Below are positions 4,332-21,233 of a stretch of DNA of 57,653 nucleotides, piece by piece. Source of the DNA: Alphaproteobacteria bacterium (lineage in GTDB: Bacteria > Pseudomonadota > Alphaproteobacteria > Bin95); NCBI GenBank assembly GCA_029978325.1, contig JAPOJR010000003.1:1-57653 (forward strand). Reading direction: 5' to 3'. Both the position numbers and the translations under genes were made by a program. The notes below the pieces were generated by a model, which was not told where the DNA came from, made no database searches, and saw nothing but the letters and a program-made list of their open reading frames with translations. Numbering within the stretch: the first letter of the stretch is position 1; every line of letters begins with the position of its first letter.

Positions 4332-5828
4332 ATGCCAGATACCTTGCCGCCGCGCGACACCAGTGCGATCCCGCTGGCACTGACGTTCGATGACGTGTTG
4401 CTTCGCCCTGCCGCCTCGTCTGTGCTACCGGCGCAGGCATCGACCAGAACCCGCCTGACGCGGGAAGTCGAACTGGGCATTCCCCTTGTCGCATCCGCCA
4501 TGGATACGGTGACCGAAGCGCCAATGGCGATTGCCATGGCCCAGGCCGGTGGTATCGGCGTAATCCACAAGAACCTATCGATTGAGCGTCAGGCCGACGA
4601 AGTCCGGCGGGTGAAAAAGTTCGAAAGCGGCATGGTGGTCAATCCCGTGACCATCAGCCCGAACCAAACGCTGGCGGATGCACTGCATCTCATGTCGCAT
4701 CACCGTATTTCCGGGATTCCGGTGGTGCAGGAAGGAACACGCCGGCTGGTGGGGATTCTGACCAACCGCGACGTACGGTTCGCCACCAATGCGGAAGAGC
4801 CGATTCTCTCATTAATGACACGGGACGTTGTTACCGTGCGCGAAGGCGTGACGCAGGAACAGGCTAAACGCCTGTTGCACCAGCACCGCATTGAAAAATT
4901 GGTGGTCGTCGACGGCAATCACCGGTGTATCGGCCTGATTACTGTAAAGGATATCGAGAAAGCCGCCCTCAATCCGAATGCAACCAAGGATTCGCACGGC
5001 CGGCTGCGCGCCGCCGCCGCCACCGGCGTCGGGCCGGAAGGTATCGCGCGCGCGGCAGCGCTGTTCGATGCCGAAGTCGATGTGCTGGTGGTCGATACCG
5101 CGCACGGCCATTCCGAAGGGGTGATGCAGGCGGTTCGGGCGATCCGCAAAATGTCGAACTACACCCAGGTGATTGCCGGCAACGTCGCGACCGCAGAGGC
5201 GGCCCGGGCGTTGATCGACGCCGGTGCAGACGCCGTAAAAATCGGTATTGGGCCGGGCTCGATCTGCACCACCCGCATCGTGGCGGGCGTCGGCGTGCCC
5301 CAGCTTTCCGCCGTCATGGAGTGCGCAGAAGCCTGCGAGGCGGCGGGCGTGCCGGCCATTGCGGACGGCGGCATCCGCGCATCGGGCGACCTGGCCAAGG
5401 CCATTGCAGCCGGCGCAGATTGCACCATGGTCGGCTCGCTGTTCGCCGGCACGGACGAGAGCCCGGGCGAGGTATTCCTCTACCAGGGCCGTTCGTACAA
5501 GAGCTATCGCGGCATGGGCTCGGTCGGGGCGATGGCTCGCGGCTCGGCCGACCGGTATTTCCAACAGGAAGTCAACGATACGCTGAAACTGGTGCCGGAG
5601 GGGGTCGAGGGCCAGGTCGCCTACAAAGGCGCCGTCAGCGTCGTCATTCACCAGTTGGTCGGCGGCCTGAAGGCGGCGATGGGCTACACTGGCAATGGCA
5701 CGATCGATGCGATGAAGCGCAACTGCCAGTTCCAGCGCATCACCAATGCCGGACTGCGCGAAAGCCACGTCCATGATATTACCGTTACCCGCGAGCCGCC
5801 GAACTACCAGATCGGCCCGCGGGCCTAA
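4332..5828 (+). CDS. guaB: IMP dehydrogenase
   Basis: [19 protein letters not shown] pair, [11 protein letters not shown] catalytic motif, YRGMGS. Confidence 0.98.
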
Positions 5829-13439: not shown

Positions 13440-15578
13440 CTAAGCGCTCAAAAACCGCTGCATGACGTTTTCAACGATACGGCTGATGTTGTTGTCGCCG
13501 CCATTCCACGGCAGTGAGCCGCAGAAGGTAATGGAGCCTACGGAAAACACCGCGCCGCCGCCCGGCACGTCGAAATAGACCATGTCGGCGCGAATCAATT
13601 CGTCGATCGGCTGCATAGCCCAAGTCGTCAGATGGGTCAGCAATTCCTCCGGCACCAGCACGAAATGGTCGGGATGGTCTTCGGACTGCGCCAGGATGCG
13701 GACGGTTTCGGGCGAACCGAGACGCACATCGGCGCGGTCCAGCTCATAGCCTGCGGCGCCGCCGCCGGAAAAGCCGAAATCGCCCAGCACCTCGTCCTCG
13801 ACCCCGGCGAAGATCCAGGCGAGGTCCGGTGCATGGCTCTCGGCGGTGCGGCGGTAATGGGTGCCTTCGAACTGGCCCTGACTGGTAAATCCCACCCCGG
13901 CCAGATGCTGCGGCGGACGCCCGTTGCGCCGCCACAGGCCGCCATAGCCCCCATCGAATGCATTGAAATATTCGCCGGGCTCGGCCGCCCAGGCGCGAAT
14001 GCCACCCTCGGCCCGGCGGATTTCGATAATGCCCTTTTCCTCTGGATGAATGGCGACCCGCCAGTAAAAGCCGTTGCCGCCCAGATACAGCAGCTTGCCG
14101 CCGGTATTGCGGTACTCCAGCAAAGCATCCAGCGTCTGAGGCGTGTGATATTCCGGGTGGCTGCCGGTGGTCACGGCCTTGTAGCCGCGGATCGCCTCAA
14201 ACCCTTCCTCATGCAATTCCCGGTCGGTGATGATGTCGTAGGGGATGCCCTTCTCATGCAGCCACCAGATCAGATGGCTGTCCGCCTGGAAATGGCGCAG
14301 GCCAGAGCCCTCGCCATATCCCATGGTGATATAGCCCGGGCGGGTGTTCAGCAACGGGCGCAGATGCGAGCAATGGCAAATGCCGGAGCCGTCGCGGTGG
14401 AAATTGTAGGTCGAACACCCCAATTCCTCGTATTGCGCCGGATTAAAGGGATAGCCGCCGCGGGCAAGATGCCGGTCCATCCAATGCGGTTTGAAGTCGG
14501 GGCGGGAATGATTGCCATAGATCACATGGGTAAACGTGGAGGCCAGCACCGCCAGGTCTGCCGTGCGCTTGCCCTTGGGCGGGCAAACATAGAACGGGAT
14601 GGCGTCCTCATGCTCGCCCTGGCGGATACGGGCGACATAGACACCTGACGCAAAGCCATCCGGCACGGTCCACTCGAAGTCGGTATCCCATCCGAAGTCA
14701 TAAATATCGTCGCGGTGAAAGTGGATGGCGCCATAGTGCTCGGGCCGGTTCTGCCAGTTCATCTCCGACCCATCCCAGGCAGAGCCGGTCATGGCACGGG
14801 CCGGGTGGTTGACAAGGCTGCCGTGGTGGCCGCCCGGCCCAATATCCTCGACAGTTGTGCTGGAGGTCTGCCGGGCGAAATCCCACCGCGCCGCCAATTG
14901 GCTTTGGTCGACAGAGGCGGCCCGGTAAATCGCGGGTGCTTCGATCTTGCCGTCAAAATGGTGGGCGGGATGTCCGTCGCGCAGCGCAGCGGCGACCAGA
15001 ACCGGCTGGCCGACGTCATAGGCGCCCCCCGCAGCATTGGCCCTAGCCGTGGCGGCTTCGCCCCAAATGCCGGCAGGGCGCTGCTCTACCGTCAATTCTC
15101 CGGATGCGCTGTCATAGGACAATCGCACGTCGCACCATTGCCGTGCCAGCAGCCGCTTGCCCGTGCTGACCACAGCGCTGCCCGCCCTCCCGGCCAGCGC
15201 TCCTTCCTCGTCCAGAAACAGCTCGAAACCGCCGGCGGCAAGGATCGCCTGCTCGCCGTCGCCGGGCAGCGTCGGCCAGATCACGGCGGCAAGCGTCACA
15301 TTGCCGGAAACATTTGGGCCATTGGCAATGATGGCATACGAGCCCGGATTGAAGGCCTGCTTGCGGGCTGGGTAGTCGCCAGCAAACGACGCCTCGATCG
15401 CGGTTTCGACAATTCCCGGCCCATCGCGGTTCGGATCGGCGCAAATCGAACGCGCGAGCCGCGCCGAAAAGGCGCCGGCTTCGGTGCAGGAAACCTTGAA
15501 ACGGATCGTCTCGCCGGGCCGGACAGACAGCGGATCGCAGTAGCCAATGACAGGAATTCGCGGAAACTGGTGGGTCAT
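13440..15578 (-). CDS. N,N-dimethylformamidase large (beta) subunit family protein
   Basis: GYCDPLSVRPGE start, LamG-like insert, IYGN, STYNFHRDGSG, HPEYHT, YLGGNGFYW, FSVGSITF. Confidence 0.9.
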   Translation of the reverse strand: MTHQFPRIPVIGYCDPLSVRPGETIRFKVSCTEAGAFSARLARSICADPNRDGPGIVETAIEASFAGDYPARKQAFNPGSYAIIANGPNVSGNVTLAAVIWPTLPGDGEQAILAAGGFELFLDEEGALAGRAGSAVVSTGKRLLARQWCDVRLSYDSASGELTVEQRPAGIWGEAATARANAAGGAYDVGQPVLVAAALRDGHPAHHFDGKIEAPAIYRAASVDQSQLAARWDFARQTSSTTVEDIGPGGHHGSLVNHPARAMTGSAWDGSEMNWQNRPEHYGAIHFHRDDIYDFGWDTDFEWTVPDGFASGVYVARIRQGEHEDAIPFYVCPPKGKRTADLAVLASTFTHVIYGNHSRPDFKPHWMDRHLARGGYPFNPAQYEELGCSTYNFHRDGSGICHCSHLRPLLNTRPGYITMGYGEGSGLRHFQADSHLIWWLHEKGIPYDIITDRELHEEGFEAIRGYKAVTTGSHPEYHTPQTLDALLEYRNTGGKLLYLGGNGFYWRVAIHPEEKGIIEIRRAEGGIRAWAAEPGEYFNAFDGGYGGLWRRNGRPPQHLAGVGFTSQGQFEGTHYRRTAESHAPDLAWIFAGVEDEVLGDFGFSGGGAAGYELDRADVRLGSPETVRILAQSEDHPDHFVLVPEELLTHLTTWAMQPIDELIRADMVYFDVPGGGAVFSVGSITFCGSLPWNGGDNNISRIVENVMQRFLSA

Positions 15579-17378: not shown

Positions 17379-17819
17379 CTACTTGACCAGACGGCCCTTG
17401 ATCTCCCGCGGCGTGAACCCGTTGCACGGCACCGCGCCACAGACGCACACAAACGACCGGTGCAAGCGGTCCTCTGTCTGCTCGTAATTCATTGTGACCC
17501 AGTCGCCGGCCGCAATCGGACGCCGGGCCGTGAACGTGCGGGTCCGCATGTCCACGTCGCAGTTGGCGTCGCAACGGTGCAGCACTTTGCCCATGAAATA
17601 GGGATCATGCAGGTAATGACCAGGTTCGACCTGGAGCGTGAACAAAGTGATCTCGCTGCTGAAAAAGCCCGTAAAGCGAAAGACGGTCTCACCCGGTTGG
17701 AACGGCACCAGCGCCACCACGCCTTCGCCAACGTCCCGGCCAATCGGGCGTATGGCGAAGCGGTCCTGCGTCGGTTCGTGCGGAAATGTCGGAACCGCGT
17801 CCGGGTAGAACCGGGTCAC
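17379..17819 (-). CDS. SET-domain protein with post-SET Cys cluster
   Basis: GEG motif I, GKVLHRCDAN (NHSCxPN-like), VTMNY, FVCVCGAVPC; GTG start overlaps the upstream TGA (GTGA). Confidence 0.82.
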   Translation of the reverse strand: MTRFYPDAVPTFPHEPTQDRFAIRPIGRDVGEGVVALVPFQPGETVFRFTGFFSSEITLFTLQVEPGHYLHDPYFMGKVLHRCDANCDVDMRTRTFTARRPIAAGDWVTMNYEQTEDRLHRSFVCVCGAVPCNGFTPREIKGRLVK

Positions 17820-18193
17820 TTGCGCAGAAGGGTCTGGCTGTCGATCCCGGAGGGAGCGAACCAGTCCTTTACAGTTTTGATAACGGTTTCGGCTTCGAAA
17901 TCCTTGCACGAAAACACGTCGAGATACATGTCGCGTGCTTCGTCATTGGTGTGGATCGTGATCGCGCTGGTCTGGATCAACTGCACGGCAGAGATGCCGA
18001 CTTCGTCGCCGCCACCGAACCGCTCGACGAAAGGTTCGCCAAACGGAACCATGTCGATGCGCTTGACCATGTCGCGGCAAAAGTCCGCGATTTTTTCCTT
18101 CTCCAGCAGCGCGGCATTGCAACCGGACGCTGTGAGGATCACATGTTTCCCATAATGTTTAACGCCGTCAATGACGATGCGCTTGTAAGGCAT
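17816..18193 (-). CDS. Pyruvoyl-dependent AdoMet decarboxylase (SpeD)-like proenzyme
   Basis: GKHVIL, GISAVQLIQTSAITIH (cleavage-site region), YLDVFSCK; 125 aa. Confidence 0.85.
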   Translation of the reverse strand: MPYKRIVIDGVKHYGKHVILTASGCNAALLEKEKIADFCRDMVKRIDMVPFGEPFVERFGGGDEVGISAVQLIQTSAITIHTNDEARDMYLDVFSCKDFEAETVIKTVKDWFAPSGIDSQTLLRK

Positions 18194-18463
18194 TGATGGT
18201 TGGTTTCCTTGAGGGGCAAGAGAGAAAGAGCCGCTTTGCGCCCGGATTTGAGCCTGGAACGGAGAGAACTAGACCAAGCCGGCCAGGGGCAAATGCATCT
18301 CCCTGGTCCATTCTGTCGGAGCTATATGCGAATATCCGCCGACAACCACAAGCGGATTATACGGCGCTCAGCACTCAGCGCATGCGCCAAACTGTCGCGC
18401 CACTTGAACGGCGGCAGACTGCAATTTTAGCGTTTTAGTTTCAATTGGTTATCGAGAATTGAA

Positions 18464-19162
18464 TCACTCATCGTAGCATCGGACCCAATCTTCCTGCGGT
18501 GCACGCTCGGTAACCAGTTGGTTGATCACCGCTTCATTGTCAGCAAAGCCCAGCGCCATGCCACAGACGACGGTCTGGTCTGCACCGAACCCGATTTCTG
18601 ATCGGATCACCGTATGATAATGGCACCAGGCGGCCTGGGCGCAGGTGTCCAGTCCGGCGCCGCGCGCCGCGGTGACAAAATTGCCAAGAAACATCCCGAA
18701 ATCCAACCAGCTGCCGATTTCCAATGCCTTGTCGATCGTAAAGAAGATGCCAACGGGGGCGTCAAAAAAGACGAAATTACGGCCGGTCTGGGCGAACATC
18801 TTGTCCGTGTCGCTGCGTCCAATACCCAACAGGCCATACATGTCCCACCCGACTTTGCGGCGACGGGACTTGTAAGGCTCGGGAAATATATTTGGGTAGT
18901 AGTTATACTCAGCAACGTGTTTGTCGTTCTCGGTGTTGCGGGCGTGCAGCACTGCCTGGCAAACACGGTCCTTGGCAGCGCCGGTAACGACGTGGGCCAG
19001 CCAGGGCTGCATATTCGTACCGGAAGGCGCGCGTGACGAGGCTTCCAGCAATTGACGGACCGTCTCCATGGGTACAGGCGTCGGTTTGAAAGCGCGAACG
19101 GAACGGCGAGACGCAAGGGCGTTGAAGACGGCGGGGTCGATTGCAGGCACAGTGACAGACAT
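18464..19162 (-). CDS. Nitroreductase family protein
   Basis: SRRSVRAF, APSGTNMQPW, FFDAPV, AAGLDTCAQ-like motifs. Confidence 0.92.
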   Translation of the reverse strand: MSVTVPAIDPAVFNALASRRSVRAFKPTPVPMETVRQLLEASSRAPSGTNMQPWLAHVVTGAAKDRVCQAVLHARNTENDKHVAEYNYYPNIFPEPYKSRRRKVGWDMYGLLGIGRSDTDKMFAQTGRNFVFFDAPVGIFFTIDKALEIGSWLDFGMFLGNFVTAARGAGLDTCAQAAWCHYHTVIRSEIGFGADQTVVCGMALGFADNEAVINQLVTERAPQEDWVRCYDE

Positions 19163-19225
19163 TGAAGACTCGCTGGGATACGGAAAAGATTCGAGACAAG
19201 CCCGGGGCATCGGGACGTAATAGCT

Positions 19226-20932
19226 TCAGGCGACCCATTCGGAAACCGGGGCAGCCGCTTCGTGCAACGGCTGGCTCAGCACATCTACCAAGGTCGGGCC
19301 GTCATGGGCTATGGCCTGCTTCAGCACAGCCGGCAGTTCCGCCGGATCGGATACGCGCCAACTTTTTACCCCGAATGCTTCCGCGACGCGGGCATGGTCG
19401 GTGCGGTTGAAATCGACGTTGTAGTAACGCTGGCCGAATCCCGCGTGCTGCCCCGCCTTAATCCACCCGAACGTACTGTTCGAAAAGACAATGCTGGTAA
19501 TCGGCATGTTGTGGCGAACGACCGTCTCGAACTCGCCGCAGCAAAAACCAAACGAGCCGTCGCCCATCAGTGCAACGGTCTTCACATCCGGGCGACCGAC
19601 ATGCGCGCCCATGGCGGCTGCAAGGGCATAGCCCAGCGCACCATGCGCCCGGTTGGTAATAAAGTGTCGACCACCTTGCCGCCAGCGGTAATGAGCCGAA
19701 ATGTACGGGCAGGGCGTACCGGGATCGGCGACAATCGTGGCGTCCGGGTCTAAGGCGCCCTGCAACGCCTGAATCACAGCCTCCGGCCGGATCGGCAAAT
19801 CAGCGGAATTGGCCAACGGCCGAAAATTGGCAAGCTTCCCCGCCCAGGCTCTGGCGGCGCGGGACGTGCCGTGTTGCCGGTTGCGCTCCGGCTGGCCGGC
19901 AACCGCGATCGCAAGGGCATCCAGCGCCAGACGCGCGTCCGCGTTAATTGCCACTGCGGTCTGGTAGTTGGCCCCGATGACCTCTGGATCGCTGTCGATA
20001 TGGATAATCGTGCGGCCTTGCGGCGGCGAGCGCCACCGTTCTGTCGTTACCGAGCCTGCCCGGCAACCGATGAACAGGATCACATCCGCCTCGTCGATCA
20101 CGGCGCGGGTCGAGGGCACGCCGCCGTTCGAGCCTACGACACCAACGGCAAGCGGATCCGTCTCGGCAATCGCGCCCTGGCCAGAGACGGTCGTCGCAAT
20201 GGGCAACTCCAACGTGCGCGCTAGACGGGCCAGAGGCGCAGACGCACCGGCGATCACCGGCCCGCCGCCACAAATGGCAACCGCGTTGGTGGCTTTTGCC
20301 AAGATGCGCGCAGCCTCGGAAATCGCGACCGGGTCCGGCGCGGCACGCTCCGCCGGAAAGCTGCGGTGTTTCGAATCCGCCCAGATCTCGGCCTCGTCCA
20401 CCGCATTTTTCTGAGTGTCGAACGGCAATGCAAGGTGCGCAGCGCCAGGGCGGCCCGTCGTCATGGCTCGGAATGCGGCGCGCACCATCGCCGGCAGGCG
20501 GGCAGCGTCATCCAGCGAGGCGTTCCACTTGGTAACCGGGCGAAAGAGAGCCACCTGGTCCAGTTCGGTCAGTGGATAGCGGCCTCGCGAGGCGGTCGAG
20601 ACATCGGTGGTAATGGCGAGGATCGGGATCGAGCTTTCGTTGGCCTCGACCACGCCTGGCAAAATATAGGTCGCGCCACCCCCGGAGGGCCCCTCACAGA
20701 CACCAGGCCTGCCCGTTACACGCGCGTATCCGTCCGCCATGTAGGCAGCATGTCGTTCGTCCCGGGTCAGGATATGCTGGATGCCATGATCAAGCCGGGC
20801 AAGCGCGTCGTAAAACGGCAGTGTGGTATCGCCGCAAAGCCCAAACATGTGGCGGACGCCATAGGCTTGCAACATGCGCACCATGGCCTCAGCGCCGGTC
20901 AGATGGTTCGGGGTCGGTGAAGGAACGGACAT
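19226..20932 (-). CDS. Thiamine-diphosphate-binding enzyme (acetolactate synthase/decarboxylase-like)
   Basis: TRDERHAAYMADGYAR, GDGSFG...N ThDP motif. Confidence 0.93.
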   Translation of the reverse strand: MSVPSPTPNHLTGAEAMVRMLQAYGVRHMFGLCGDTTLPFYDALARLDHGIQHILTRDERHAAYMADGYARVTGRPGVCEGPSGGGATYILPGVVEANESSIPILAITTDVSTASRGRYPLTELDQVALFRPVTKWNASLDDAARLPAMVRAAFRAMTTGRPGAAHLALPFDTQKNAVDEAEIWADSKHRSFPAERAAPDPVAISEAARILAKATNAVAICGGGPVIAGASAPLARLARTLELPIATTVSGQGAIAETDPLAVGVVGSNGGVPSTRAVIDEADVILFIGCRAGSVTTERWRSPPQGRTIIHIDSDPEVIGANYQTAVAINADARLALDALAIAVAGQPERNRQHGTSRAARAWAGKLANFRPLANSADLPIRPEAVIQALQGALDPDATIVADPGTPCPYISAHYRWRQGGRHFITNRAHGALGYALAAAMGAHVGRPDVKTVALMGDGSFGFCCGEFETVVRHNMPITSIVFSNSTFGWIKAGQHAGFGQRYYNVDFNRTDHARVAEAFGVKSWRVSDPAELPAVLKQAIAHDGPTLVDVLSQPLHEAAAPVSEWVA

Positions 20933-21233
20933 CGACTGCACCCTGTCGCTATAAAATTTTTATCGTCATGCATTAGCGCATGAGTCGCCATCGAGTACAG
21001 CGCGGAGACTGTGAATAATGGTCGTTGCCGCCACGGTCGGCGCGGCCCCAAACGCATCCGATTGCCCGCAGACAAATATCGGGAGCGCATCGCCAACGCT
21101 TTGGAGGCGCAGAGGCCGGAAATTAAACGGCAGGCGAAGCTTTTGGCCCGCGTGGGCGCGTGACTTTCGAACAGCTGCACCGGTATGCTGACACAGGCAG
21201 TGCCATATGGTTGGCCAATCGAAGGATTTTTCC

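Follow-up and report, generated by a model that had tools for sequence, protein, structure and literature searches.

A SpeD-like decarboxylase paired with a BurB-like SET-domain methyltransferase: a candidate two-step route to sulfonium compounds in diverse bacteria

Why should a gene for a homolog of SpeD, the S-adenosylmethionine decarboxylase (AdoMetDC), overlap a gene for a SET-domain methyltransferase, and what would the two enzymes make together? This question is raised by two genes on the minus strand of a 57,653-nucleotide stretch of the genome of an Alphaproteobacteria bacterium (assembly GCA_029978325.1, contig JAPOJR010000003.1, positions 1 to 57,653), which is referred to here as the window. 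A sequence-only reading of the window proposed a two-enzyme pathway in which the SET protein either uses decarboxylated S-adenosylmethionine (dcSAM) or methylates the amine released by the decarboxylase. The analysis presented here retains the two-enzyme pathway and arrives at a different chemistry. By homology and analogy, we consider it probable that the pair converts methionine to S-methylmethionine (SMM) and, by means of an SMM decarboxylase derived from SpeD, converts SMM to 3-dimethylsulfoniopropylamine (DMSP-amine). The observations cover the structure and conservation of the genes, their fusions, the folds and catalytic residues of the proteins, and transcription.

The first line of evidence is the relationship of the SET protein to BurB. 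The top three Foldseek matches of its AlphaFold2 (AF2) model (predicted local distance difference test score, pLDDT, 91.9) are all BurB (9L4V, BurB-SMM-SAM; 9L4T, BurB-Met), with E 1e-13, template modeling (TM) scores of 0.86-0.88, and 33-35% identity; the next matches are histone SET domains, at E ~1e-6 (4.5e-6) and ~16% identity. A 21-member profile of the family scores BurB at 128 bits and lysine methyltransferases at 40 bits or less (ASH1L, 40), while the pairwise alignment of the window protein with BurB is ungapped over 117 residues at 39% identity. The SAM-site motifs of the SET fold, namely H81-R-C83-D-A-N86 (NHSC-like H-x-C-x-x-N), the catalytic-site tyrosine Y112, and the post-SET motif C125-x-C127-x4-C132, are invariant in 21 homologs. 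Among the residues that form contacts in BurB, Tyr124, His93, Arg133, and Thr73 are kept as Y112, H81, R121, and T61, respectively (window numbering equals BurB numbering minus 12). BurB of Burkholderia thailandensis is a SET-domain enzyme that S-methylates free L-methionine to SMM (Trottmann 2020, PMC7496086; Zhang 2025, PMC12542666). The sequence-only reading took the SET protein for a lysine or amine methylase; sequence scores and the structural model indicate instead that it most likely groups with this free-methionine S-methyltransferase and not with the N-methylases.

BurB also provides a precedent for the pair as a whole. After the BurB step, the bur pathway continues with BurI (SMM decarboxylase), BurD (aminotransferase), and BurE (dehydrogenase); mutants in burD and burE still yield the final product, via housekeeping enzymes. 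The statement in the sequence-only reading that no characterised system of this form was known therefore needs correction, as BurB/BurI is a SET and decarboxylase pair, although the decarboxylase fold is unrelated. Both systems (PMC7496086; PMC12542666; PDB 9L4T/9L4V) genetically tie a small SET methyltransferase to an amino-acid decarboxylase, and the two SET proteins have the same fold and the same post-SET CxCx4C motif. BurI, however, is reported to be related to the pyridoxal phosphate (PLP)-dependent diaminopimelate (DAP) decarboxylases, whereas the window decarboxylase is a pyruvoyl-type SpeD homolog of family PF02675; it may work like BurI without belonging to the BurI/SMMDC family. The bur cluster contains BurD/BurE-type aminotransferase and dehydrogenase genes together with a nonribosomal peptide synthetase-polyketide synthase (NRPS-PKS), none of which is linked to the window pair. 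The order methionine to SMM to DMSP-amine was established for BurB/BurI by assays and mutants, whereas for the window pair it is proposed by analogy. The hosts differ as well: reviews place BurB in Burkholderia only, while the present family occurs in estuarine Alphaproteobacteria, Chloroflexota, Spirochaetota, and others.

The second line of evidence is the conservation of the pairing. Many of the matches listed for the two proteins lie together on the same contigs. A scan of species-representative genomes found the SET protein in 144 species; of the best 80 loci, the 78 in which the SET open reading frame (ORF) is complete were surveyed by ORF and clustering, and the partners were counted. 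The SpeD-like gene directly adjoins the SET gene in 53 of these 78 loci, seven of which have an extra methyltransferase gene upstream. A PLP decarboxylase is found instead in 14 loci (13 of a Chloroflexota type and L032), the extra methyltransferase is the only partner in three, and no partner could be recognised in eight, several of which are contig ends. A decarboxylase gene thus adjoins the SET gene in 66 of 78 loci, and L032 (Piscirickettsiaceae) provides one more, with a 751-aa ornithine/lysine/arginine (Orn/Lys/Arg) decarboxylase encoded two genes away on the opposite strand. The stop-to-start spacing between the SpeD-like and SET genes is less than 50 nt in all cases, being a 4-nt overlap in 18 loci and +5 nt in 15. 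Three SpeD-like homologs on contigs outside the SET list (L090, L091, and L092) all have a downstream gene at the same 4-nt overlap; two of the three products match Pfam SET, and the third, of 172 aa and without a recorded Pfam match, is assigned to SET on account of its location and length. The survey of gene neighbourhoods, which the sequence-only reading had named as a check, therefore finds the pairing kept far beyond chance. In two Leptospirales loci (L075, L079) the order is inverted, with SET first and the SpeD-like gene downstream, so the pairing outlasts rearrangement.

The best 80 loci, nearly all of which come from metagenome-assembled genomes, belong to Alphaproteobacteria, Gammaproteobacteria (Pseudomonadales, Sedimenticolaceae, Piscirickettsiaceae), Chloroflexota, Spirochaetota, Omnitrophota, Planctomycetota, Eisenbacteria, and Acidobacteriota, and the SET/decarboxylase module spans about eight bacterial phyla, in which no such route had been recognised. 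At closer range, the SET gene is present in 9 of 10 genomes of the window's own genus and in 3 of ~10 of the next genus; it was found in none of 17 genomes of a third genus and in none of 24 other families of the class. Such a distribution suggests an accessory module that, once acquired, is passed on stably. A 388-aa open frame of one genus-mate (G005) contains a second SET homolog, which is divergent (35% identity) and separate from the orthologous pair.

The third line of evidence is that the decarboxylase can be exchanged while the methyltransferase is retained. The 13 Chloroflexota loci have no SpeD-like gene; directly beside SET, on either side but always on the same strand and at gaps of 25-90 nt, they encode a ~500-aa PLP decarboxylase of the Orn/Lys/Arg type (PF01276/PF03711). 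In the SET tree rooted on BurB, these PLP-linked genes are nested in an otherwise SpeD-linked clade (Shimodaira-Hasegawa-like approximate likelihood ratio test, 97), and we read the swap as a non-orthologous displacement of the decarboxylase. An exhaustive profile search of 1.84 billion representatives returned 83 members of the SET family at E <= 1e-30. Single-chain proteins combine SET with a SpeD-like domain of the HTND clade described below (P0245), with a PF02784/PF00278 PLP decarboxylase (P0263), or with a PF02784 decarboxylase (P0278 and P0280). The SET part of P0278 is 40% identical to the window SET protein. Since PF02784 is the family of ornithine decarboxylases (ODC) and DAP decarboxylases, and since BurI and Streptomyces SMMDC resemble plant DAP decarboxylase (a reported 24-27% identity), P0278 is taken, by analogy, as a putative BurB-BurI-type fusion. 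The conserved pair and its single-chain form in P0245 thus bear out the two-enzyme pathway that had been proposed from the window alone.

Three unrelated decarboxylase folds tied to one methyltransferase family indicate that methylation and decarboxylation take place on one metabolite, an association that is hard to explain otherwise. For this reason, it seems highly unlikely that the two genes are unrelated neighbours or a regulatory pair, that is, an extra polyamine decarboxylase next to a protein-lysine methyltransferase, which perhaps modifies the decarboxylase or a nucleoid protein. Protein methylation by bacterial SET enzymes is known, and the SET homologs carry the NCBI label "SET domain-containing protein-lysine N-methyltransferase"; nevertheless, a small molecule used by both enzymes accounts better than a single protein target for the three folds and for the fusions to two of them, and the pocket of BurB, the closest relative, is closed and takes up a free amino acid.

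Other architectures were also seen in the family. A 4765-aa metagenomic protein (P0239) is a four-module NRPS (C-A-T x4) that ends in a SET-family domain (189.8 bits, residues 4623-4762), recalling the NRPS-PKS context of burB (BurA, with DMSP, dimethylsulfoniopropionate, as starter unit). In P0247 (371 aa) SET is fused to GTP cyclohydrolase II, and in L091 the gene downstream of the SpeD-like gene encodes a 405-aa SET fusion with a C-terminal CxxCxxCC domain.

The nature of the SpeD-like protein itself bears on what it decarboxylates. Its AF2 model (pLDDT 93.9) superimposes on the AdoMetDC of Thermotoga maritima and Aquifex aeolicus with TM scores of 0.80-0.85 (1TMI and 1VR7 are among the structures matched) at 19-24% identity. 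Residues S76, H81, and C96 align with the self-processing and catalytic residues S63, H68, and C83 of the T. maritima enzyme and, together with the HTND motif, are invariant in 52 SET-linked homologs. The fold and the Ser/His/Cys residues of a bona fide SpeD are thus in place, while its remaining marks (the Pro and Glu-Ser, an equivalog score above the cut-off, and partnership with speE) are absent. The score against the NCBIfam AdoMetDC equivalog TIGR03330 is 44.9, compared with a cut-off of 75.65. Throughout the 52 homologs the cleavage site is Thr-Ser instead of Glu-Ser, and the invariant HTND replaces HTWPE, with loss of the Pro that Li et al. (2023, PMC10407285) report without exception in bona fide AdoMetDC. 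Judged by sequence, the protein is not a true AdoMetDC and appears to be neofunctionalised.

This conclusion agrees with the sequence-only reading, which had pointed to SpeD homologs turned arginine or ornithine decarboxylase. AdoMetDC homologs neofunctionalised to decarboxylate L-ornithine or L-arginine, SpeDC and SpeDA, respectively, have been described (Li et al. 2023, PMC10407285). Compared with the validated ODC (SpeDC) domain of an Omnitrophica SpeD1-SpeD2 fusion, the SpeD-like protein reaches 48.9 bits, and compared with the SpeD of its own genome, 39.7 bits. As far as can be judged from the optically recognised (OCR) text of two validated fusion domains printed in the supplement of that paper, the SpeD-like protein and SpeDC have in common VQLI-x-TS, YLDVFSC, an FGxxxVxxFG insertion, and a C-terminal LRK; of the diagnostic SpeDC residues (Gln, Thr, Phe, Tyr) read from the same two domains, Q71, T75, and Y90 are present, and Phe is replaced by the invariant Thr82. 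The window protein may accordingly be described, with the caution due to any such assignment, as a SpeDC-like amino-acid decarboxylase with its own signature. Like SpeDC and SpeDA, it has the class 1b SpeD fold without the AdoMetDC hallmarks, and it is a second SpeD copy beside a single SpeE, which is a criterion used in that paper (PMC10407285). It differs in having the invariant HTND where SpeDC has HF(A)N, in lacking one of the four diagnostic residues, and in having a SET methyltransferase gene, not polyamine genes, as its linked partner; SET is not mentioned in PMC10407285.

These properties render hardly credible the proposal that the SpeD-like protein makes dcSAM and that SET uses it for aminopropyl or methyl transfer. 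Membership of PF02675 and the AdoMetDC fold would be in keeping with dcSAM, but the invariant Pro is missing, the NCBIfam score lies below the cut-off, and the nearest characterised relatives have no AdoMetDC activity. Moreover, the PLP enzymes that replace the SpeD-like protein elsewhere, or are fused to SET (Orn/Lys/Arg-type and ODC/DAP-fold), are unable to make dcSAM and are not known to act on SAM.

The polyamine genes found elsewhere in the genome are relevant here. The assembly (375 contigs, 88% complete) contains one spermidine synthase gene (PF01564), on contig C324, which lies directly downstream of a gene for a canonical SpeD (119 bits) carrying ESH..HTWPE. The claim that the window itself holds no aminopropyltransferase gene was thus correct, this being the sole PF01564 match of the whole assembly. 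The genome also contains lysA and a second PF02784 decarboxylase, which scores below the lysA cut-off and which we read, from its sequence, as ODC-like. Even without the window genes, the genome appears equipped for the whole of the standard route from putrescine to spermidine. With canonical speD-speE, an ODC-like decarboxylase, and lysA already encoded, the window pair is surplus to polyamine synthesis, and its SpeD-like gene is a surplus, divergent paralog. The possibility that this copy merely supplies a distant speE, which the sequence-only reading had named as the case that would refute it, was ruled out by the finding of speD and speE side by side on C324.

The resemblance to SpeDC suggests yet another interpretation, in which the SpeD-like protein is an ornithine (or lysine or arginine) decarboxylase and SET N-methylates the side-chain amine of the amino acid or diamine. 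The structural match to BurB makes polyamine N-methylation a rival rather than the main reading. The SET family is far nearer to the S-methylase BurB than to any N-methylase (128 vs 40 bits), an ODC-like enzyme is already encoded in the genome, and the fusions to a BurI-type fold mirror BurB/BurI. The diagnostic residues cut both ways: three of the four SpeDC residues are present and the best score is obtained against the validated ODC domain, yet the fourth, Phe, has become an invariant Thr within the invariant HTND. In favour of N-methylation, one may add that the replacement decarboxylases come from Orn/Lys/Arg families, that SET enzymes classically methylate lysine amines, and that a GntF-like amine N-methyltransferase is encoded beside the pair in ~10 loci. 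A literature search for links between SET and polyamines found nothing. On balance, we regard this interpretation as unlikely.

In the mechanism that we favour, the BurB-type SET protein would, by homology, methylate the sulfur of free L-methionine with SAM as the donor, giving the sulfonium amino acid SMM. The SpeD-like proenzyme would cleave itself before Ser76 to generate its pyruvoyl cofactor, and the processed enzyme would, as the gene context suggests, decarboxylate SMM to DMSP-amine. SMM is a plausible substrate because it is SAM with a methyl in place of the adenosyl group, is cationic, and is close to ornithine in size, shape, and charge. DMSP-amine could then be converted to DMSP by non-dedicated aminotransferase and aldehyde dehydrogenase activities, as in the burD and burE mutants; alternatively, the pathway may stop at DMSP-amine, or lineages that have a GntF-like methyltransferase may N-methylate it. 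Both substrates and the final product of the module are matters that we infer.

The two steps might also proceed in the opposite order, with the SpeD-like protein decarboxylating methionine to 3-methylthiopropylamine and SET S-methylating the latter to DMSP-amine, which would constitute a bacterial "decarboxylation" route. In favour of this order, no enzymes are known for the decarboxylation pathway, the operon begins with the decarboxylase gene, and 3-methylthiopropylamine was outside the substrates tried on BurB. We nevertheless find this order distinctly improbable, given that the three partner decarboxylase families prefer cationic side chains, and that SMM has such a side chain and methionine does not. 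Contrary to the order assumed in the sequence-only reading, SET most likely acts first, converting methionine to SMM, and the decarboxylase acts on its product.

Two known systems carry out parts of the proposed route, from methionine through SMM to DMSP-amine, with unrelated proteins. The SDC of Spartina anglica, an SMM decarboxylase that evolved from ODC (Payet et al. 2024, PMC11464771), catalyses the same reaction that is proposed here, SMM to DMSP-amine, by retuning of an ornithine decarboxylase lineage, and so sets a precedent for the step; it is, however, a plant PLP enzyme related to plant ODCs and is not homologous to the window SpeD-like protein. The MmtN pathway of marine bacteria (Williams 2019; Peng 2022, PMC9135737) begins with the same conversion of methionine to SMM and follows the same logic. 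Since MmtN and BurB lack significant sequence similarity, MmtN is unrelated to the window SET family; MmtN clusters, unlike the window pair, carry downstream DMSP genes. Pfam tallies of 260 flanking genes revealed no enrichment of aminotransferase, aldehyde dehydrogenase, or amine oxidase genes. This absence fits with the burD and burE mutants, which still make product, and it also leaves room for DMSP-amine as the product.

An additional enzyme is present in about ten loci, where a gene for a ~250-aa PF01234 (NNMT/PNMT/TEMT) methyltransferase, scoring 121 bits against NCBIfam GntF (cut-off 60), lies upstream. In seven of them (L037, L049, L055, L057, L069, L078, and L086) it precedes the SpeD-like gene, forming three-gene methyltransferase-decarboxylase-SET operons; in L044, L045, and L071 (Pseudomonadales, Pseudohongiella) it precedes SET with no decarboxylase gene. 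GntF dimethylates a primary amine in guanitoxin biosynthesis, and the GntF-like methyltransferase could N-methylate DMSP-amine. The earlier proposal of amine methylation after decarboxylation is not supported for SET, while the separate GntF-like enzyme could carry out such a step in these loci. No NNMT-like or OKR-type genes were found by tblastn elsewhere in the genome of the window.

The gene structure of the pair is that of a tightly linked unit (Table 1). The overlap of the SpeD-like stop codon with the SET start codon, reported in the sequence-only reading, is present in the sequence, and both genes lie on the minus strand. Homologs begin with M-[TSNK]-RFYPD, which favours the overlap GTG as the SET start over a longer ORF from the upstream GTG at 17909. 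No Shine-Dalgarno (SD)-like motif was seen ahead of the SET GTG; together with the GTGA overlap, this fits translational coupling by termination-reinitiation. When eight alphaproteobacterial upstream regions are aligned, the sole invariant blocks are CTTG and ATAT (spacing N17-18), which belong to a promoter-like element that leaves a leader of ~128 nt (18194..18321). A scan of the region upstream of the pair for E. coli-type consensus promoters gave no match. A riboswitch or other leader RNA was also considered and rejected: Rfam gave no match upstream of the pair at gathering or E-value thresholds, and RNAalifold on seven leaders (-0.75 kcal/mol) supported no structure. The window sequence is found in estuary metagenomes, and metatranscriptome contigs from seawater, aquatic, and salt-marsh samples (95-99% identity) run across the SpeD-like/SET junction, which is consistent with co-transcription of the pair in saline habitats. 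In our opinion, the gene pair is best explained as a self-contained, co-transcribed two-step module.

Table 1 Positions of the gene pair, its signals, and related features
Feature	Position	Strand	Remarks
SpeD-like pyruvoyl-type decarboxylase proenzyme, 125 aa	18193..17816	minus	PF02675 AdoMet_dc, 66 bits
BurB-like SET-domain methyltransferase, 146 aa	17819..17379	minus	PF00856, 23.9 bits (cut-off 22.4)
GTGA overlap of SpeD-like TGA stop and SET GTG start	17816..17819	minus	plus strand tcac
Catalytic core codons Ser76-Cys96	17906..17968	minus	TS76AITIH81TNDEARDMYLDVFSC96; Ser76 is the predicted self-cleavage and pyruvoyl site
Promoter-like element before the pair	18322..18352	minus	CTTGTG-N18-CATATAG; conserved in upstream alignment
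GNAT + carbon-nitrogen hydrolase fusion, 521 aa	15738..17303	plus	convergent neighbour of SET gene; Pfam
Nitroreductase-family gene and TPP-enzyme gene	18464-20941	minus	upstream of the pair, same strand
DMFA2_C (dimethylformamidase beta-like) gene	13440-15578	minus	beyond the GNAT fusion
Canonical speD-speE pair (G000, contig C324)	7311-8356		
ODC-like PF02784 decarboxylase, 378 aa (G000, contig C143)	731-1432		
Second SET homolog of genus-mate (G005, contig C292)	3755-4072		within 388-aa open frame
SET fusion with C-terminal CxxCxxCC domain, 405 aa (L091)	4387-5604		

The genes surrounding the pair are less constant. The fusion of a GNAT domain with a carbon-nitrogen (CN) hydrolase adjoins the SET gene in 6 of 11 alphaproteobacterial loci, and also in L004, even though the other flank varies; in L013 and L090 it lies downstream of SET and runs in the same direction. 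Outside Alphaproteobacteria it was absent from the Pfam tallies of flanking genes. This fusion may be an accessory third component. The nitroreductase, TPP-enzyme, and DMFA2_C genes are probably outside the module, since the nitroreductase recurs in just three flanks of related loci.

It should be noted that several observations weigh against the SMM reading. BurB is a long-branch outgroup to the SET family, and 39% identity leaves the substrate unfixed. Three BurB contacts are changed, Ser88 to Met76, His138 to Val126, and Arg42 to Val30; however, BurB holds methionine mainly via main-chain atoms and its S88A mutant is still active, and these differences are therefore uninformative. The substrates for which the three decarboxylase folds are best known are Orn, Lys, Arg, or DAP, and an N-methylated basic amino acid or diamine would therefore suit the context just as well. 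Three Pseudomonadales loci combine SET with the N-methyltransferase and have no nearby decarboxylase. No dedicated enzymes for the conversion of DMSP-amine to DMSP are linked to the pair, and DMSP itself is therefore only a possible product. Many hosts belong to anaerobic sediment or reactor lineages for which DMSP production has not been reported. Finally, the RNA contigs are assembled and derive from close relatives (95-99%), and DNA carry-over is possible.

There is also a bolder version of the proposal, which we hold only tentatively and consider rather doubtful. According to this version, the real product is DMSP-amine or an N-methylated derivative, not DMSP, and the SpeD-like family represents the third known neofunctionalisation of AdoMetDC, in this case to an SMM decarboxylase, spread over at least eight phyla including anaerobes. 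DMSP-amine could then be a sulfonium "pseudo-polyamine" that mimics dcSAM and serves as an osmolyte, a polyamine substitute, or an aminopropyl donor releasing dimethyl sulfide.

Reviews up to mid-2026 describe burB as confined to Burkholderia and environmentally minor. In the literature consulted, no paper connects the decarboxylation of SMM with an enzyme of the pyruvoyl or AdoMetDC type, or SpeD homologs with SET genes. What is known, then, is the first enzyme, as a homolog of the characterised BurB; what appears to be new, judging from the comparisons above, is the types of decarboxylase for the SMM step and the wider taxonomic reach. The climate-relevant compound DMSP ranks among the major sulfur metabolites of the sea and is the chief source of dimethyl sulfide, and many of its producers lack the known marker genes. 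The occurrence of the BurB-like family in 144 species-level genomes, almost always tied to a decarboxylase, contradicts the Burkholderia-only view, and the family is seen in metatranscriptome contigs of seawater, aquatic, and salt-marsh samples. If the proposed route is correct, the pair would provide a compact two-gene marker for the synthesis of sulfonium compounds (SMM, DMSP-amine, DMSP) in sediments and estuaries, the decarboxylases would include two new, non-homologous kinds of SMM decarboxylase, and the SpeD family would have undergone a further switch of substrate beyond ornithine and arginine.

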